DNA of 64,000 bases from a virus, in the IMG/VR virus record IMGVR_UViG_3300037418_001469. One strand, given 5' to 3'. The number at the start of each line of letters is the position of its first letter. Within the stretch, counting starts at the first letter, position 1. Under the pieces are notes generated by a model. It was not told the DNA's origin and searched no databases. It was given only the letters and a program-made list of their open reading frames with translations. Shown here piece by piece: positions 6,219 to 23,832 of the stretch. A program made the position numbers and the translations under genes.

Positions 6219-6619
6219 ATGTTTTTCGTTCGGAAAATGTAGAATATTTTTTCCAAAATAGGGCACGATTTTTTTTCCAAAAAGTAGTCCGAATTTTTTT
6301 TCAATTCCTATAATCAGGAATGGAATTTTTTCTATATAAGTGTAATTTTACACCCCCTAGGTACTGGATTTTTTTTCCAATAAGGCTGAAAAGTCTATAA
6401 TGTATGGGTTAGGGTGCGTATATCCCACTTCGTGGGTTTTTTGGTCTTTCATTTGAATATACCCCTACCCTACCCAAAAAGACGGGAAATATTGCAGGAA
6501 ATAATTCCTATAACCTATGTTATGGGAATTAAGTCAATTGTACACAATATAATTTTAGACTATAAAATCGTACTCACAATTGTATTAATCAAAAAAACTT
6601 GATATGTAACCTAATATGC

Positions 6620-6671
6620 TTAGTTTAACCAATAAACAAATACCATTAGTTTACCCAATTAACAAATACAA
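6620..6671. repeat. Two tandem 26-bp direct repeats in the divergence region
   Basis: TTAGTTTAACCAATAAACAAATACCA / TTAGTTTACCCAATTAACAAATACAA. Confidence 0.75.
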
Positions 6672-6747
6672 AATTGAATTGTGCACAATTGATTCAAACA
6701 GCTAGAACTCTATGTAGTTTACACATACATAGAAAATCTAGGTAAGT

Positions 6748-6765
6748 TTGTGAATGTTTTCACAT
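6748..6765. promoter_or_regulatory. Rex- or Fnr/Crp-like palindromic operator
   Basis: TTGTGAA-tgtt-TTCACAT: one mismatch to Rex TTGTGAAnnnnTTCACAA, perfect TGTGA-N6-TCACA. Confidence 0.35.
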
Positions 6766-7105
6766 ACCTATATCTTTTATTATAATAGAAAGAACATGAA
6801 ATCAAGTAAATTTACTTGACAGTAAAACGTAGTAATATCAAGGCTTTGACGAGTTTCTTCCTATATAGAAAAAAGGACCAAAAAAGAATCTTTAAAAAAG
6901 ATGAAAAAATGAGCAAATAGGAGGAAATAGGAGATAATAGCAGAAAAACATGCTTTTTTAAGCTAAAACGGGCTAATATGAACTTATTTGGAGTTTTACT
7001 TATTTTGCTCTAGGTATTATGATTGCATTGTAAGATAAATTAAATAAAGTTAAGGTTTGGTTGAGGGGGTGCTTTTCTACCCTTCAAAAAAGTTTTTAAA
7101 AAAGG

Positions 7106-7473
7106 TTGCATATTTTCCTACAACCTGCGTATAATGATAGTAGCATCACAATTGATAATCAAATAGCTTATTCTTCTCACACCTTCTATCTAGTATAGAG
7201 GGGATGGACATAACGACGTTTTATAGTCAGGTGAATGTGAGAAAAAACTTTTTAAAAAAAGTGGAATAAAGTTCTTGACTATCACATAAGCTATACTGTA
7301 AGATGATTATAGTACCACACTAACTTAATACGCTTTACCTTACAGGGATTGTCTCCCCTACATTAACCTTCTATATAGAGGGTATCTCCAAAAAGGCTTA
7401 GTAAGAAACTTAAAAAACTTTTTGGAAAGATTTTAAAATAACGCTTGACAGTTTAAAACTTAACCTTTACAAT
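7106..7473 (+). promoter_or_regulatory. Three tandem sigmaA promoters at start of the plus-strand region
   Basis: TTGCAT-N18-TATAAT (7106-7135), TTGACT-N18-TAAGAT (7275-7304), TTGACA-N17-TACAAT (7445-7473), each preceded by A/T tracts. Confidence 0.8.
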
Positions 7474-7499
7474 TAGGGTAGCTTCAAAATTAACGCTTG

Positions 7500-8440
7500 A
7501 CAGTGAATAAACAGGGTAGTGAGAAAAACCCTACTATATTGTTCATAAGTGGTAACAAGCAACCCACTATAAAAATAGGCTTGCATGAGTTCCTTGACAA
7601 GAAAATAGTTCAAAGAAGACTTACACCCTTCATGTTTTAAAGAGGGTTCGGGTCTTGTCTAACTGATACTCGCTGAAAAAGGTGATTCTTGCCTAATCTA
7701 AGTGAGTGCCAATGGGTTAGCTAATTAGTCAGATATCATGCTTGCATAGGTGATGGAAGATGTCCAAATTACAGGTGAAACTAAGGGTTTTTGACTTAGC
7801 AGGTTCTCTGGAAACGGGCTTGGTGAGTGGGTCAACAATAACCGCAATGACTAAAAGGTGGAACCCAAGCAATTCCGAGCAAAGCGACTTGATTCTAAGG
7901 TTACGAACTAGCTTGGATAGTAAGCTATACACCCCACACTGTATCACCTGAAAAGGTGGGCAGTCTGTGACTTAAAAGTAAGGGGTGAGAACTTGGCAAG
8001 GTTAGGCAGGGACGGGCGACAAGGGTAGCAAAGCGAATCTAAGAACTATTTGACAATACAGGTTAACTTAAAACTTTCTTAGGGAATATTTTATGTTTGT
8101 TGTTGAAAGTTGAAAGTTGAAAGGTTAACCGCTAAAAGTTGGGTATAGCATATCCAAGTGGGAAAAGTAACCATTCACAATATGTGCGGTTACAATGTAG
8201 GATAGCGAGAGCGAATCCAAGGTATAGCAACCTATACCATAATTAAGGTTGTAAATTTCGGATTGTTAAGCAAGTCGAGTAGTCCAAACAATGAGTCCCT
8301 AGGGATTACCATTACAGGCACACTGAAAAAGGTTAGTCTCCTTATTAGGATAAACACTTTAGTAGGTTAGACTGTAAAGGCAAACAAGGTACTATACTCA
8401 CTGGAGCACATGGTACGACTTGCTTGATTGAATCTGATAC
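7500..8440 (+). ncRNA. Candidate large structured non-coding RNA (multi-domain, about 0.9-1 kb)
   Basis: No credible ORF; GC-richer than flanks; nested helices 7603-11/8043-51, 7686-99/7999-8012, 7818-23/7865-70, 7930-35/7982-87, 8126-32/8186-92, 8267-77/8416-26; mismatches are mostly G-U. Confidence 0.75.
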
Positions 8441-8506
8441 GGTTTTATTCGGGGGTTTATCCCTTGAATAATGCTAATAGTCGAATATAAAACTATAACT
8501 TAGGAG

Positions 8507-8827
8507 TTGTTGAAATTGAGAAAAATTGCTAACGATACAAAATTAAACTTTAAGAAAGATTTATCTAACATTGAATTAATGGGAATTGAACATATCTTAA
8601 ACTCGTTTGAAACTGATATTGAATCTGAGGTATTAATGGCTGAGGATTACGGTTTAGCTTATACGAGTTCATCATCATATGCTATGTATAATGTTACGGA
8701 ACATGTAGTATTTGATGGTTTAACTGTTAGTCACTTCTCTATTACTGATAATGATATGCTTATTATGGTATGTACTGATGATGATGAGAATAATCATTGT
8801 TATGAAATAGAGGGTTCGGATTACTAG
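8507..8827 (+). CDS. Acidic hypothetical protein (first stem-bracketed cassette)
   Basis: ORF with TTGGAG RBS; D/E-rich. Confidence 0.75.
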   Translation: MLKLRKIANDTKLNFKKDLSNIELMGIEHILNSFETDIESEVLMAEDYGLAYTSSSSYAMYNVTEHVVFDGLTVSHFSITDNDMLIMVCTDDDENNHCYEIEGSDY

Positions 8828-8943
8828 TCCTTTACCTTTTCCGCCAAATTAAAATCTAACATTCGACTGTTAGTGTTATTCAAGGGATAACATTATCCTC
8901 TGAATAATGGTTATAGTCGAAAAATAAATCATAATTAGAAAGG

Positions 8944-9394
8944 TTGTTGAATATGTTTAACAGTAATCAAATTAAAGTAGTTAGGGAATATTTAGAAAAA
9001 CGTTTTAATACAATGAATGTAACGTATATTAAATCAGGTGCTAGTGGCATACTATTCCAAGTGAATGAATTTGAGTTAGTAGTTATTATTGATACTGATT
9101 ATAATGTTACATTGGGTTATACAAAATATGATGAAGTTCACACTATTAAAGGTGGTTACTCATTAGGGTTATTAGAAAATGCATTGAAAGAAACTGAATG
9201 TGCTTATGCTTAAATGGTTAGTGATGATTACAGTCTTATTTTTGATTCTTGTACTTGGGTTGGTTAATGATGCATTATCAGTATACAGTGTTACTCATTA
9301 TATAGATGTTGTGTTTGTATCTACTATAGGAGTTGCTTTACTATTTGTTTATGTTGTATCTGTATTTGTTACAGTGTTGATTCACAAAAATTAA
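8944..9394 (+). other. Two small genes (8944-9213; 9200-9394 two-TM membrane protein) in second stem-bracketed cassette
   Basis: AGAAAGG RBS; overlapping ORFs; two hydrophobic segments in the second. Confidence 0.7.
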
Positions 9395-9528: not shown

Positions 9529-10842
9529 ATGAAAAAATCAGATTTTCTAGAAATGAAAGTTCAAAAATCAGGGGAGTCTTTAAAGGGAATTGCAAGTCTT
9601 ATTACTCAGTCTTTTGAGGTTGAAGCAATGACAAAAAGTGATGAAGATGTTTTATCTCGCAAATTAGATTCAATTGGCAAAGGTTTAGCAAGGGATAAAA
9701 GTATTAACGATGGTAATGGTTGGAATGATGATGTACACCATGATGTTTCATTAACTTCTTATACTCATGATAATGGTGGTCTATATGGTACTGAAACAAG
9801 TTCTTCACCTATTGATATCTGCAATTGGTTTGAATTGAAAAACTATTTAAATCAAATATTAGACACTTATTTACAAGCTAGTGGGAATAAAGTTCATTTT
9901 ACTGTTAGAGGTTCTATGCATGTACACAATACATTATCATATACTTATGATGAGGATTACAACCTTCTTAGTGCTGTAAAATTAGACATTAACGGTGTCT
10001 ACCATAATGTGGCTCGTTTTATCCTTAAGTTTATGCCCGTTATGAAATGGTTGGTAATGACTGATAGAAAAGGTGCTCGTGGGGTTCGTGGTTCATCATA
10101 TGGTGATAAATTTGATAATGATAGATTATTTTCTTGGTGGTCTGAATATGAGGGTTCTATAGATACTGATAGCACATACAGACTAACTCATTTTGATAGA
10201 AACTCATGTTTTCGAGTTATGCAAGCTAATTGCTTACACTATGAAAATCGCTTAGCAGATTGTAGTTTTAACGCTACACACATTGGTATGTGGTTGTCAA
10301 TCAATCGTGCAATAACTCTTATGGGTATTGATTTTTCAAGGAATGGTTATTTGTTCAATATCAATGGTGATGATGTAGAATTATCTAGAGACTTGATGTA
10401 TCAACATTCTAGAGGTTATAAATACGTTGGCAAAGAATCTATCGAAATGCTATATAAACAGTTTGTTGGATATCTTGCAAAATATCTTAAAATTATTGGT
10501 TCACTAGAAACTATTGAAGTGATGGATAAGTTAATCAAGTGTCCTATTTCAGAATACTTAAATGAGAACAATATTACTGAGGAATATTGGAATCTAGAGA
10601 TTATAGAAAAAGTGTTTAATACTAGGAATCGTGCTAGTGATACGGTTCTAAGAGATAGATTCTTAGAAGGTATCAAGGCTATGCTTATTCCTAATGCGGA
10701 TAGCTTGAACGACTTCTTAGATAATACTGCAAGTTATCTAGAGGTAGAATCTAAAAAGGTTAAATCATTATATCAGATGTTCAAACGTGAAAACGTGGAT
10801 ATTGAGTTCTTAGGTGGTAGACTTGTATATCTTGGGGATTAA
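9529..10842 (+). CDS. Amidoligase (glutamine synthetase-like COOH-NH2 ligase), long type
   Basis: SFEVE, HDVSL, TETSS, GSMHVH, HYENRLAD; colinear with 26836-28137 including C-terminal extension. Confidence 0.7.
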   Translation: MKKSDFLEMKVQKSGESLKGIASLITQSFEVEAMTKSDEDVLSRKLDSIGKGLARDKSINDGNGWNDDVHHDVSLTSYTHDNGGLYGTETSSSPIDICNWFELKNYLNQILDTYLQASGNKVHFTVRGSMHVHNTLSYTYDEDYNLLSAVKLDINGVYHNVARFILKFMPVMKWLVMTDRKGARGVRGSSYGDKFDNDRLFSWWSEYEGSIDTDSTYRLTHFDRNSCFRVMQANCLHYENRLADCSFNATHIGMWLSINRAITLMGIDFSRNGYLFNINGDDVELSRDLMYQHSRGYKYVGKESIEMLYKQFVGYLAKYLKIIGSLETIEVMDKLIKCPISEYLNENNITEEYWNLEIIEKVFNTRNRASDTVLRDRFLEGIKAMLIPNADSLNDFLDNTASYLEVESKKVKSLYQMFKRENVDIEFLGGRLVYLGD

Positions 10843-13937: not shown

Positions 13938-14366
13938 GTGGGGAAAATGATTAAAGTAGAAAATAATACTGTAAGTGTTAATGGGATATCTATTCAATTT
14001 GATTCTACAACAAGTCTTAATAGTTTTTTATTAGACTATGTTTCTAAGCATGAGCAGGTTGTTTCGCAAGTTGAAAAGATTATTATAGAAAAACCTTTTA
14101 ATTATAAGCTACAAATGTTAATTGATACTTGTGGGTATATTGAAATTGAAGAACTTGGTTTATCAGTTCGTTCTTTCAATTGTTTAAAGCGTGCAGGAAT
14201 TAATATAATTAAAGATGTTCTAGAATTAGATTATGAGCGTATAATTAGAGTAAGAAACTTAGGGATTAGAAGTATTAGAGAAATTGAAAGTGTGGTAAAT
14301 GAGTTCACACGTTCTAATTATATTAATTGGTCTGAATCTTTACCGCCCGTTGCAGTCGAAAATTAA
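13938..14366 (+). CDS. RNA polymerase alpha-subunit CTD-like protein
   Basis: [20 protein letters not shown]...[12 protein letters not shown] versus B. subtilis RpoA [20 protein letters not shown]...VRNLGRKSLEEV; no alpha-NTD. Confidence 0.9.
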   Translation: [142 protein letters not shown]

Positions 14367-14699: not shown

Positions 14700-15926
14700 G
14701 TGGTTGTAATGTGTAATGATAAAAAACGTACTTATGGAATCGAACTAGAGGGTTATACAGATGAGAATATTAGGGGTAATCATATAGGTCAGGGTTGGAA
14801 AGTTATTGAAGATGGTTCTTTAAATGATGGAACAGATGAATGTTGTGATTGTGATGGTAGAGGTCACAATGAATGTTATCGTTGTGATGGTAGAGGTAAT
14901 GTTGATTGTGATGATTGTTGCGGTAGTGGTGAAGTTCCTTGCGGTGAGTGTGATTGCACAGGATATATAGAATGCCATCATTGTGATGGTGAAGGCGGTA
15001 GTTGGGTATCTGATGATGAAGGTGATGAAGATTGGGTAGAATGTGAACATTGTGAAGGCAATAAAACATTAGATTGTAATGATTGTAATGGTAGTGGGTA
15101 TACTACCTGTGAAACTTGTGATGGTGACGGTGAAATTGAATGTGAATCTTGTGATGGTAATGGAAGTTACGAGTGTGAATCTTGTGATGGTCGTGGTTCT
15201 CATGGTGATGGTGAATACTATGGTGTTGAATGTGTGAGTGGTATCTTAACAGAAGGTGATTATGAGCCTATTAATCATATATTTGACTATATCGAACGCT
15301 ATGATTGGACTATTGAAGATGATTGCGGTACTCATGTTCATATTGGCGGTGATGATTTAAATGAGAAAGACTTGTCTAAACTTTATATTCTTGCTAATAT
15401 TCTTGAGCCTGCTATTTATGGTTCACTTCCTAGTAATCGTATTAATGGCACTTATGCAAAACACACACAGAGAGATATGGCAGAATATTTAATTGGAAAA
15501 GGAGAGGATATTACATTACAACAATTAGCTGATTATTATTATGGATATAGCGTTAGATTAAACGGACACTTTCAAAAATATGATAGCGCTAGATATTATG
15601 GTTTAAATTTAAACTCTTGGTTCTATCGTAAGACAATTGAGTTTAGATACTTTGAAGGTGCTATCAATAGAGAGAAAGCTAATAATTGGATAGAGTTGTG
15701 CATTAAGCTAGTAGACTTTGCAAAATATACTACCTTTGAGCAGTTAATGGTTATAGGCAAAGACTTCTATTTGATAGATAACCTACAAGAATTACTAGAC
15801 AAAACAGAAGAATTATTAGGTTTAGAGTATAATATTGGAGCATATAGTAACTACGCATATCAGGAATCAAAGCATAATGTAGCAAGTCAATTCAGAGATA
15901 CTCACATTATTACTCGTGCAGTATAA
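14700..15926 (+). CDS. Amidoligase_2-family enzyme with inserted 10x CxxCxGxG DnaJ-like zinc-finger region
   Basis: YGIELE, DGSL, GVECVS, CGTHVH, RYYGLN, TIEFRYF; ten CxxC repeats between DGSL and GVECVS. Confidence 0.85.
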   Translation: MVVMCNDKKRTYGIELEGYTDENIRGNHIGQGWKVIEDGSLNDGTDECCDCDGRGHNECYRCDGRGNVDCDDCCGSGEVPCGECDCTGYIECHHCDGEGGSWVSDDEGDEDWVECEHCEGNKTLDCNDCNGSGYTTCETCDGDGEIECESCDGNGSYECESCDGRGSHGDGEYYGVECVSGILTEGDYEPINHIFDYIERYDWTIEDDCGTHVHIGGDDLNEKDLSKLYILANILEPAIYGSLPSNRINGTYAKHTQRDMAEYLIGKGEDITLQQLADYYYGYSVRLNGHFQKYDSARYYGLNLNSWFYRKTIEFRYFEGAINREKANNWIELCIKLVDFAKYTTFEQLMVIGKDFYLIDNLQELLDKTEELLGLEYNIGAYSNYAYQESKHNVASQFRDTHIITRAV

Positions 15927-22593: not shown

Positions 22594-23832
22594 ATGTGCG
22601 GTATAAACGGAATGGTTTTCTTAAAAGGTGTAAAACGTGATGCTCAAATGATGGCTAAAGTACGCTTTATCTTTGATGAATTAATGGTTGAGACTATGGA
22701 TAGGGGCGAACATGCTACTGGATTAGCTAGCTTTAAGCGTGATGGAAGTTACGAATTTCATAAGAAAAATATCAATGCAGATAAAATGACTACAGAAGAT
22801 GAAAAATATCGTGAAATTGTTGCTAACTTTGACGGTGAAGATACTAGTGTAGTAATCGCTCATACTCGCTACATGACTCAAGGAACAGCAACAAACATGG
22901 ATAATAATCACCCATTTGATATTGGCAATATCGTCGGACTACATAATGGTTCGGCAAAGAATGACAATATTCTATTCAATGAATATAAAGATAAGTTTAC
23001 TCGTATTGGTCAAGTTGACAGTGAAATTGTGTTTCAATTAATTAATCACTATAACCAAGATGATATTACATTAAAAGGCTTAACAAGTGCATTGGAGGAT
23101 ACTAAGTTAAGAGGACTATTTGCACTAGCTTTTGTCCACAAGAACAATCCTAATATGTTACACTTAGTTAAGCAAGAAAAACCTATGTACATTGCTTATT
23201 GGAAAGAGGCAGGAATTGTTATTTTCAACTCGATTGACGACTACATTATCAAGGCTTTCCGTAAATTAGAGCGTATAGGATTCTCATTCGGACTAAAAGA
23301 CACCAAGCAAAGTGTAGAGATTAAGAAAGTTACTGATGATAGATACTTCACTGTTAATGCTGATGCTGAAACAGTAGCAGATGCTATTAGTGATGAAGTT
23401 CGTTTGTATATCGAATCTTCTTCTTACACTTATTACAAAAGTGGTGTAACAACTACAACTACTACCACTAATAAGACCACTAAGGCAACTGTTGAAGGTA
23501 AGCGTGAAAAAGTAACTGCTACAGATAGCAAAGGTTTAGTGTTGCAAGGTGAAATTGACACTGCTACAGGTGAGGTTATTATTTGGTCTAATGATGATAT
23601 TAATGATGCTGATGATGGTAGTGGTCTAAATGATGTTGAGGAATTGTCTTGCTTTGAGTGTAATGAATTAATCACAGAAACAGATATAGATGCTAGCTAC
23701 AATCGTGACAATCCAAAAGACGAGTGCATTTGTTTCGATTGCTACACTGAAATCATGAACACATATGTAAATGATATGCTCGATGAAAGAAAGGAAGAAT
23801 CTGTTGATTGCGATGGTCAAAAGATAGGCTAA
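22594..23832 (+). CDS. Class II (Ntn) glutamine amidotransferase with C-terminal Zn ribbon
   Basis: MCGI start, RGEHATG, AHTRYMTQG, NNHPF, HNGS, VDSE; C-terminal CFEC..CFDC. Confidence 0.92.
   Translation: MCGINGMVFLKGVKRDAQMMAKVRFIFDELMVETMDRGEHATGLASFKRDGSYEFHKKNINADKMTTEDEKYREIVANFDGEDTSVVIAHTRYMTQGTATNMDNNHPFDIGNIVGLHNGSAKNDNILFNEYKDKFTRIGQVDSEIVFQLINHYNQDDITLKGLTSALEDTKLRGLFALAFVHKNNPNMLHLVKQEKPMYIAYWKEAGIVIFNSIDDYIIKAFRKLERIGFSFGLKDTKQSVEIKKVTDDRYFTVNADAETVADAISDEVRLYIESSSYTYYKSGVTTTTTTTNKTTKATVEGKREKVTATDSKGLVLQGEIDTATGEVIIWSNDDINDADDGSGLNDVEELSCFECNELITETDIDASYNRDNPKDECICFDCYTEIMNTYVNDMLDERKEESVDCDGQKIG

Follow-up and report, generated by a model that had tools for sequence, protein, structure and literature searches.

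Between ~7480/7530 and ~8450 on its plus strand, the 64,000-nt stretch of viral DNA analysed here (IMG/VR record IMGVR_UViG_3300037418_001469, hereafter the window) is predicted from its sequence to encode a structured non-coding RNA (ncRNA) of ~0.9 kb, which represents an uncatalogued family and forms the first part of the early transcript. The helices of this RNA are kept by compensatory changes on the plus strand only, and related uncultured phages have retained the RNA together with its promoter.

A sequence-only reading of the window had singled out positions 7500-8440 as an ORF-free, GC-richer stretch lying directly downstream of strong promoters at the head of the early transcript, and each of these points held up. 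The longest open reading frame (ORF) within 7500-8450, in any frame, is 72 aa, and the GC content is 0.42 at 7600-8200 versus ~0.30 in both flanks. The plus strand folds with -273.9 kcal/mol (z = -3.5 versus shuffles), and the minus strand with -228.9 kcal/mol. Three plus-strand promoters of the sigma-A type, starting at 7107, 7275 and 7445, are followed by a second copy of the AACGCTTGACAGT box:

7107-7136, plus strand: promoter P1, TTGCAT-18-TATAAT, read from the sequence, its first hexamer being below the scanner threshold
7275-7304, plus strand: promoter P2, TTGACT-18-TAAGAT
7445-7473, plus strand: promoter P3, TTGACA-17-TACAAT, an 11/12 match, with the likely main start near 7480
7496-7524, plus strand: second copy of the AACGCTTGACAGT box, with TTGACA at 7496 and a weak -10

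It is the copy at 7496-7524 that aligns with the single conserved promoter found directly 5' of the RNA in every homologue, for instance TTGACA-17-TAGAAT in the homologous locus L005 and TGGTAAGCT in L010. The AACGCTTGACAGT box itself is duplicated in the window (7440-7452 and 7491-7503, 51 nt apart) and single-copy in the homologues; of the two copies, the upstream one retains a good -10 (TACAAT) and the downstream one does not. Promoters P1 and P2 are each followed by similar inverted repeats, CCTTCTAT...ATAGAGGG, at 7183-7203 and 7366-7384, which may act as 5' stabiliser hairpins of the transcripts.

Homologues were sought with the protein encoded at 8507-8827 as a handle, through protein searches and contig look-ups, followed by nhmmer for the non-coding stretch. 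At least five lineages of uncultured phages (L010/L037, L005, L008, L006 and L032/L034) have one at the corresponding position, with nhmmer E-values from 1e-58 to 1e-14. L010, L011 and L012, near-identical to each other, share 74% identity with the window over 464 nt (E = 1e-58); L037, a close relative of L010, is full length, and L005 matches over the whole length (E = 1.5e-14). L032 and L033/L034 make up a more distant subfamily, the two branches of which are 89% identical to each other. The remaining homologues are partial: L008 lies on a contig truncated at the 5' side, L006 has the final 245 nt (86% identical; 8322-8450), and L030/L031 have the final 140 nt only. Gene callers left the homologous stretch gene-free in every full-length case, and no conserved ORF was present in any homologue. 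All full-length homologues stand at the head of plus-strand early genes, with a conserved TTGACA promoter at the start.

The neighbouring protein (8507-8827) is 42% identical between the window and L010, against 74% for the RNA, and blastn among the loci detected only the RNA and short intergenic elements, with no coding DNA; the non-coding stretch is thus the best conserved sequence of the region. Since the gene after the RNA varies among lineages, the RNA is not the leader of any one particular gene. It was not found in several relatives that carry the neighbouring gene (L004, L009, L035/36 and L038-41), nor in the whole genomes of PJN02, FADO and 2S-4, the nearest cultured relatives by the neighbouring protein. 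The window, L032 and L005 versions gave no blastn match among 50,697 GenBank phage records; pattern scans of IMG/VR, JGI metagenome contigs and GTDB genomes returned chance matches only, none confirmed by nhmmer, and an IMG/VR locus search with the neighbouring protein returned nothing. One relative lacking the RNA, L038, has a 1.3-kb gene-free gap (472-1763) heading its plus-strand genes; this gap shows no similarity to the RNA and could hold another non-coding element.

Evidence for a conserved fold comes from an alignment of window positions 7660-8110 with L010, L037, L005 and L008, analysed with RNAalifold, which yielded the following elements:

7669-7998, plus strand: conserved core, with helices P1-P3 and P5-P9
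7669-74/7701-06, plus strand: helix P1, predicted by RNAalifold, with covariation
7707-12/7993-98, plus strand: helix P2, long-range, with compensatory changes
7713-18/7862-67, then 7720-22/7857-59 and 7725-31/7848-54, plus strand: helix P3, with covariation
7873-80/7911-18, plus strand: helix P5, with covariation
7885-90/7898-7905, plus strand: helix P6, with covariation
7930-35/7982-87, plus strand: helix P7, with compensatory changes; a one-column register shift hides it in one alignment
7938-40/7962-64, plus strand: helix P8, with covariation
7944-49/7954-59, plus strand: helix P9, with a GAAA cap

At least one compensatory double change was seen in 37 of the 71 predicted pairs, compared with 15.0 +/- 2.7 in shuffled alignments (0 of 500 shuffles reached the observed count) and with 2-9 in slid controls, in which the pairing partners were moved by 1-3 columns. 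Standard pairs occupied 94.1% of cells, versus 78.4% in shuffles. Because one alignment served both to derive the structure and to score it, these figures are somewhat flattering; the margin is nevertheless large. The outer part of helix P3 illustrates the pattern, reading UGGGUU/AACCCA in the window, UGGGUU/AAUCCA in L010, UGAACU/AGUUCA in L037, UGACAU/GUGUCA in L008 and UGGUGU/GCACUA in L005. The segment 7732-7847 is a variable insert, absent from L005 and L008. Several G-U pairs are invariant and would be A-C on the opposite strand, which identifies the plus strand as the functional one. Within the distant subfamily, where 21% of aligned columns differ between L032 and L034, 14 of 156 pairs showed compensatory changes, seven changed on one side and none was broken; substitutions fell in 35 of 312 paired columns versus 89 of 280 unpaired columns.

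Covariation in five to seven homologues bears out the large structured ncRNA that the sequence-only reading had proposed, whereas the helix and domain plan sketched there survives in part. Three of its helices are conserved, with compensatory changes: 7707-12/7993-98, 7930-35/7982-87 and the stalk 8258-77/8416-37, which measures 20-21 bp in the window, L010 and L037 with differing sequences. Three others occur only in this window, namely the helix 7603-11/8043-51 that was thought to close a domain of ~450 nt, a 14-bp helix (7686-99/7999-8012) and 7801-08/7987-94. Two more are displaced by competing helices that covary: 7818-23/7865-70 gives way to 7713-18/7862-67, and the 7909-27 hairpin to 7873-80/7911-18. 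The 7686-7699/7999-8012 pairing (14-15 bp, -20 kcal/mol) may be a lineage-specific alternative fold or due to chance; in the homologues its 5' partner forms a local hairpin (P1a) instead.

Downstream of the core, three further segments were distinguished:

8014-8060, plus strand: conserved joint GCGACAAGG, then the hairpin module GGGU-AGCAAAGCGA-AUCU-AAG, which recurs at 8200-8222
8063-8120, plus strand: hairpin P10 with the invariant UAGGGAAU, from single-sequence folds
8126-8257, plus strand: middle domain, weakly conserved in sequence and length

The motif GCGAMMAG occurs once in each of seven homologues. Hairpin P10, judged from single-sequence folds, forms in all seven sequences, its closing stems varying among lineages; with RNAalifold, a MAFFT alignment of this region gave no predicted helix, owing to length variation in the 3' strands. 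An RNAalifold helix at 7999-8007/8066-75 was rejected in favour of P10. The recurrent motifs to which the sequence-only reading had drawn attention proved real and enriched: AATYYAAG is found three times in the RNA of the window, L010 and L037, versus 0.12 per kb in the rest of the window, and CTGAAAA two to three times in the same RNAs, versus 0.22 per kb elsewhere in the window. Readings of the motifs as a T-box, Shine-Dalgarno-like sequences or tetraloop receptors were dropped by eye, the defining residues not being conserved.

No covariance model of Rfam 15 reached its gathering score anywhere in the window, and relaxing the limit to E-values of up to 10 over 6900-9000 gave four chance matches of 12-18 bits only. 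The divergent homologues L005, L010, L032 and L037 likewise had no match at the gathering score, in agreement with the original failure to place the RNA in a known family by eye. ARAGORN detected no tRNA gene in the 64-kb window. As far as sequence and model comparisons tell, the RNA family is uncatalogued and is distinct from ROOL, GOLLD, OLE, raiA, HEARO, introns and RNase P.

Two elements lie between the promoters and the conserved core:

7545-7587, plus strand: leader hairpin(s), with the 3' end a few bases upstream of the boxA-like block
7589-7601, plus strand: boxA-like block GUUCCUUGACAAG, conserved in position

A small hairpin upstream of a boxA-like block and downstream of strong promoters is the arrangement of an rrn-type antitermination leader. 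Within the block, GUUCCUUGACA spans 7589-7599. The block is present in six of six full-length homologues, at the same promoter distance in L005, L010, L037 and L032 and as a one-mismatch version in L034. A predicted hairpin, its sequence varying among lineages, ends no more than ~10 nt upstream of the block in five of these six; in L037 the predicted leader fold lies further upstream. In Bacillus subtilis rrn operons, the boxA-like consensus AUGAUCUUUGAAA follows a small 5' hairpin and binds NusB (PMC13753749); in phage T7, a functional boxA follows the tandem early promoters (PMC3709561). The blocks of the window, L010, L037, L005 and L032 match 8-9 of the 13 positions of AUGAUCUUUGAAA, and that of L034 matches 10 of 13, the consensus being that of B. 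subtilis, which may not be that of the host.

At the 3' side, the RNA ends in a cassette and runs up to the first of a series of long stems:

8258-8437, plus strand: 3' cassette, ~140 nt of folded RNA closed by the 20-bp stalk 8258-77/8416-37
8446-8470, plus strand: tail hairpin UUAUUCGGGGG/UCCCUUGAAUAA, overlapping the left arm of the first gene stalk
8457-8501, plus strand: left arm L1 of the stalk around gene 8507-8827, pairing with R1 at 8846-8890

The arm L1 marks the 3' border of the RNA. In the tail hairpin, 8446-56 pairs with the first half of L1 (8459-70), and both sides change together in L006, L005 and L037. The cassette stalk contains an AGUCG/CGACU core common to the gene stalks and has counterparts of other sequence in the homologues: 21 bp in L010/L037, 25-nt arms of 80% complementarity in L008, and 13-14 bp in L032/L034. 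The sequence TGAATAATGNTNAYAGTCRAA is present in four copies in the window versus 0.02 expected, and these copies make up the arms of long inverted repeats enclosing the first genes, 8457-8501/8846-8890 (45-nt arms, 80% complementary) and 8893-8920/9454-9481 (28-nt arms, 93% complementary). Stems of ~20 bp or more are the usual substrates of RNase III, as in the early mRNAs of T7 and SP82 and in rRNA precursors. Stems of at least ~20 bp, as in RNase III processing stalks, flank units here in the form of 8258-77/8416-37 and both gene stalks. No stalk was found around the 5' core, for which leader-trailer duplexfold was uninformative.

The early genes are bracketed singly or in pairs by the long inverted repeats sharing TGAATAATGNTNAYAGTCRAA, and where two stalks adjoin, local pairing is also possible between the right arm of the first and the left arm of the second (e.g. 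8877-8905). The 3' part of the RNA is ~170 nt longer in L010 (5450-5950) and L037 (1150-1650), with an extra stalk-bracketed unit at 1298-1311/1469-1482 in L037, suggesting that cassettes are gained and lost between stalks.

The window is a large low-GC (~30%) phage contig, encoding a terminase, amidoligases, a glutamine amidotransferase and NAMPT. Relatives of its proteins found with tblastn are distant only and all from Bacillus-type phages (SPO1, phage G, Bastille-like, PJN02/FADO), and no GenBank phage matches the window at the DNA level. Transcription diverges at ~6600-7100, with minus-strand genes upstream and plus-strand genes from 8507 onwards. A DUF559/MTES_1575 gene is divergently oriented upstream of the RNA in the window, L005 and L032, and the first gene 3' of the RNA is 8507-8827 (plus strand; phrog_4874). 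The next large early gene, 9529-10842, encodes a protein of 437 aa that has no Pfam, PHROG or PDB sequence match; its Atlas model resembles amidoligase and glutamate-cysteine ligase (GCS2-like) folds at TM-scores of 0.5-0.6, which would place another amidoligase-like enzyme alongside 14700-15926 and the glutamine amidotransferase 22594-23832. Proteins of 431-511 aa, likened by position only, occupy the same place in L030, L032, L010 and L037. The 437-aa protein was considered as a partner of the RNA and rejected, given its amidoligase/GCS2-like predicted fold and no RNA link. Further downstream, 13938-14366 encodes a 142-aa protein with an RNA polymerase alpha C-terminal domain (E = 1.5e-18), the N-terminus of which has weak similarity, below the cut-off, to the late activator gp4 of phi29.

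The mode of expression of the RNA is plausibly, by analogy, like that of an rRNA operon. As for its role, we favour, tentatively and with somewhat less than even confidence, a stable RNA that is released by processing and acts in trans, rather than a leader that works purely in cis. The host sigma-A RNA polymerase would make the RNA as the first part of the phage early transcript. The leader hairpin and the boxA-like block (7589-7601) would load antitermination factors of the NusB/S10 type, as in rRNA operons and T7, allowing the polymerase to cross a kilobase of untranslated folded RNA into the early genes. Host RNase III would then cut the stalks 8258-77/8416-37 and L1/R1 (8457-8501/8846-8890), and these predicted cleavages would separate two RNAs from the mRNAs, a 5' one of ~0.7 kb and a 3' one of ~0.15 kb. 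In the last and weakest step, the freed RNA would be stable and work in trans while the phage takes over the host; a protein of host or phage would find a scaffold or decoy in its conserved loops and in the repeated AAUCUAAG / GCGAA hairpin modules. A trans-acting scaffold or decoy is favoured because the conservation exceeds what a leader would need, the following gene varies, and the stalks would detach the RNA. In a bolder version of this proposal, possible though rather doubtful, the phage would copy the whole logic of an rRNA operon to produce, within the first minutes of infection, an abundant stable trans-acting RNA, either a self-assembling scaffold like ROOL and GOLLD or a sponge whose repeated conserved modules would tie up NusB-S10 or another RNA-binding protein.

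Several observations weigh against this proposal. There is no intrinsic terminator between the RNA and the genes, which makes the RNA a physical part of the early mRNA, at its 5' end. There is no evident protein partner: the next large gene encodes an enzyme with a predicted amidoligase fold. The boxA-like block matches the consensus at only 8-10 of 13 positions and contains TTGACA, which could be read as a weak -35, although no credible -10 accompanies it in any lineage. One boxA-like copy per 64 kb is no more than expected by chance, so only its conserved position and context count. Only four to five deep lineages contribute to the covariation, and the scoring used the very alignment that gave the structure.

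Several known systems show parts of this arrangement. GOLLD and ROOL are large ornate RNAs of Firmicutes phages and prophages (PMC5737381, PMC12286853); like the RNA described here, they are phage-borne many-helix ncRNAs, 0.6-0.8 kb in size, and the known ones are abundant, with highly conserved loops and an unsolved function. They differ in showing no sequence or model match to it and in their usual tRNA-gene neighbourhood, which is missing here, whereas the present RNA, behind tandem promoters and with a boxA-like leader, heads an early operon and is succeeded by genes with no terminator in between. ROOL and GOLLD are homo-oligomeric RNA-only assemblies by cryo-EM. The T7 early operon resembles the present one in its tandem strong host promoters (A1-A3) and the boxA-type element behind them (PMC3709561). 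It also has double-stranded processing sites, at which RNase III divides the polycistronic early RNA between genes. Its leader, however, is short, a few hundred bases without a conserved large fold, compared with ~0.9 kb of conserved RNA here; moreover, the host here is Gram-positive, and boxA function and cleavage are putative. The rRNA leaders of B. subtilis likewise combine tandem promoters, a hairpin and a U-rich block of the CUUUGA type (PMC13753749), followed by a long structured RNA that is not translated and has double-stranded stalks on either side; the likeness extends to only 8-10 of 13 boxA positions, and there is no similarity to rRNA.

Among Herelleviridae, phage K produces the abundant early long ncRNAs lnc001 and lnc002, the former from its own early promoter (PMC9241854), and Listeria phage CKA15 has highly transcribed non-coding regions (PMC12282133). 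These large SPO1-related Firmicutes phages also make abundant ncRNAs of 0.5-1.2 kb with unsolved functions; the lnc RNAs of phage K differ in adjoining tRNA genes, and their structure or covariation is unpublished. A search of the phage K lnc loci (NC_005880, 13000-15000 and 37000-39500) using nhmmer --max with two profiles returned nothing below E = 4.7.

The most serious alternative to a trans-acting RNA is one in which the element, as the untranslated start of the early mRNA, works in cis only, assembling an antitermination complex, protecting the 5' end from a 5' exonuclease of the B. subtilis type, or timing early expression. We consider this possible, if on balance unlikely. The boxA-like block and the lack of a terminator between the RNA and the first gene speak for it, as does the T7 early operon, which has the same promoter-boxA-RNase III layout without a trans-acting RNA. 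However, ~900 nt with invariant loops and more than 10 covarying helices far exceed what boxA loading or a 5' stabiliser would need. The RNA is also better conserved than the genes it would serve, the downstream gene varies among lineages, and the stalks would sever the RNA from the mRNA.

An improbable alternative is a precursor of several small RNAs, in which the 5' core, the middle part and the 3' cassette would each be released by stalks and have a role of its own. This would account for the separate 20-bp stalk of the cassette, with the AGUCG/CGACU core of the gene stalks, for the variable length of a middle domain set between a conserved core and a conserved cassette, and for the ~170 nt of extra sequence in the 3' part of L010/L037. 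The 5' core, however, lacks a detectable stalk, and the long-range helix P2 (7707-12/7993-98) ties ~290 nt into a single domain.

An element acting at the DNA level, such as an R-loop replication primer from the tandem promoters or the first-entering end of the genome, with the RNA fold incidental, would suit a divergent intergenic zone with tandem promoters and positive GC skew. We regard it as very improbable: the compensatory changes, invariant G-U pairs and sequence-varied hairpins point to selection on RNA, and the same GC skew continues through the downstream genes. Least credible of all is a diverged member of a known family (ROOL, GOLLD, OLE, raiA, group I/II intron or RNase P) or a decayed protein gene, since the size and ornate look shared with ROOL and GOLLD of Firmicutes phages (PMC12286853) are set against the Rfam results (four chance matches below 18 bits at E-values of up to 10, and no match at the gathering score in the window or four divergent homologues), the lack of nearby tRNA genes and the absence of an ORF conserved in any homologue.

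The RNA is strongly conserved and occupies a privileged spot in a large phage genome, where the strongest early promoters make it their first product. Structured ncRNAs above 500 nt are uncommon, bacteria and phages having about a dozen known classes, and to our knowledge nearly every large structured ncRNA that has been solved is a ribozyme or a major ribonucleoprotein. The RNA described here appears to borrow the transcription and processing signals of host rRNA. If it acts in cis, it would show polymerase crossing a long untranslated stretch in bacteria without transcription-translation coupling; if it acts in trans, phages of Gram-positive bacteria would have in it an RNA effector for taking over the host.
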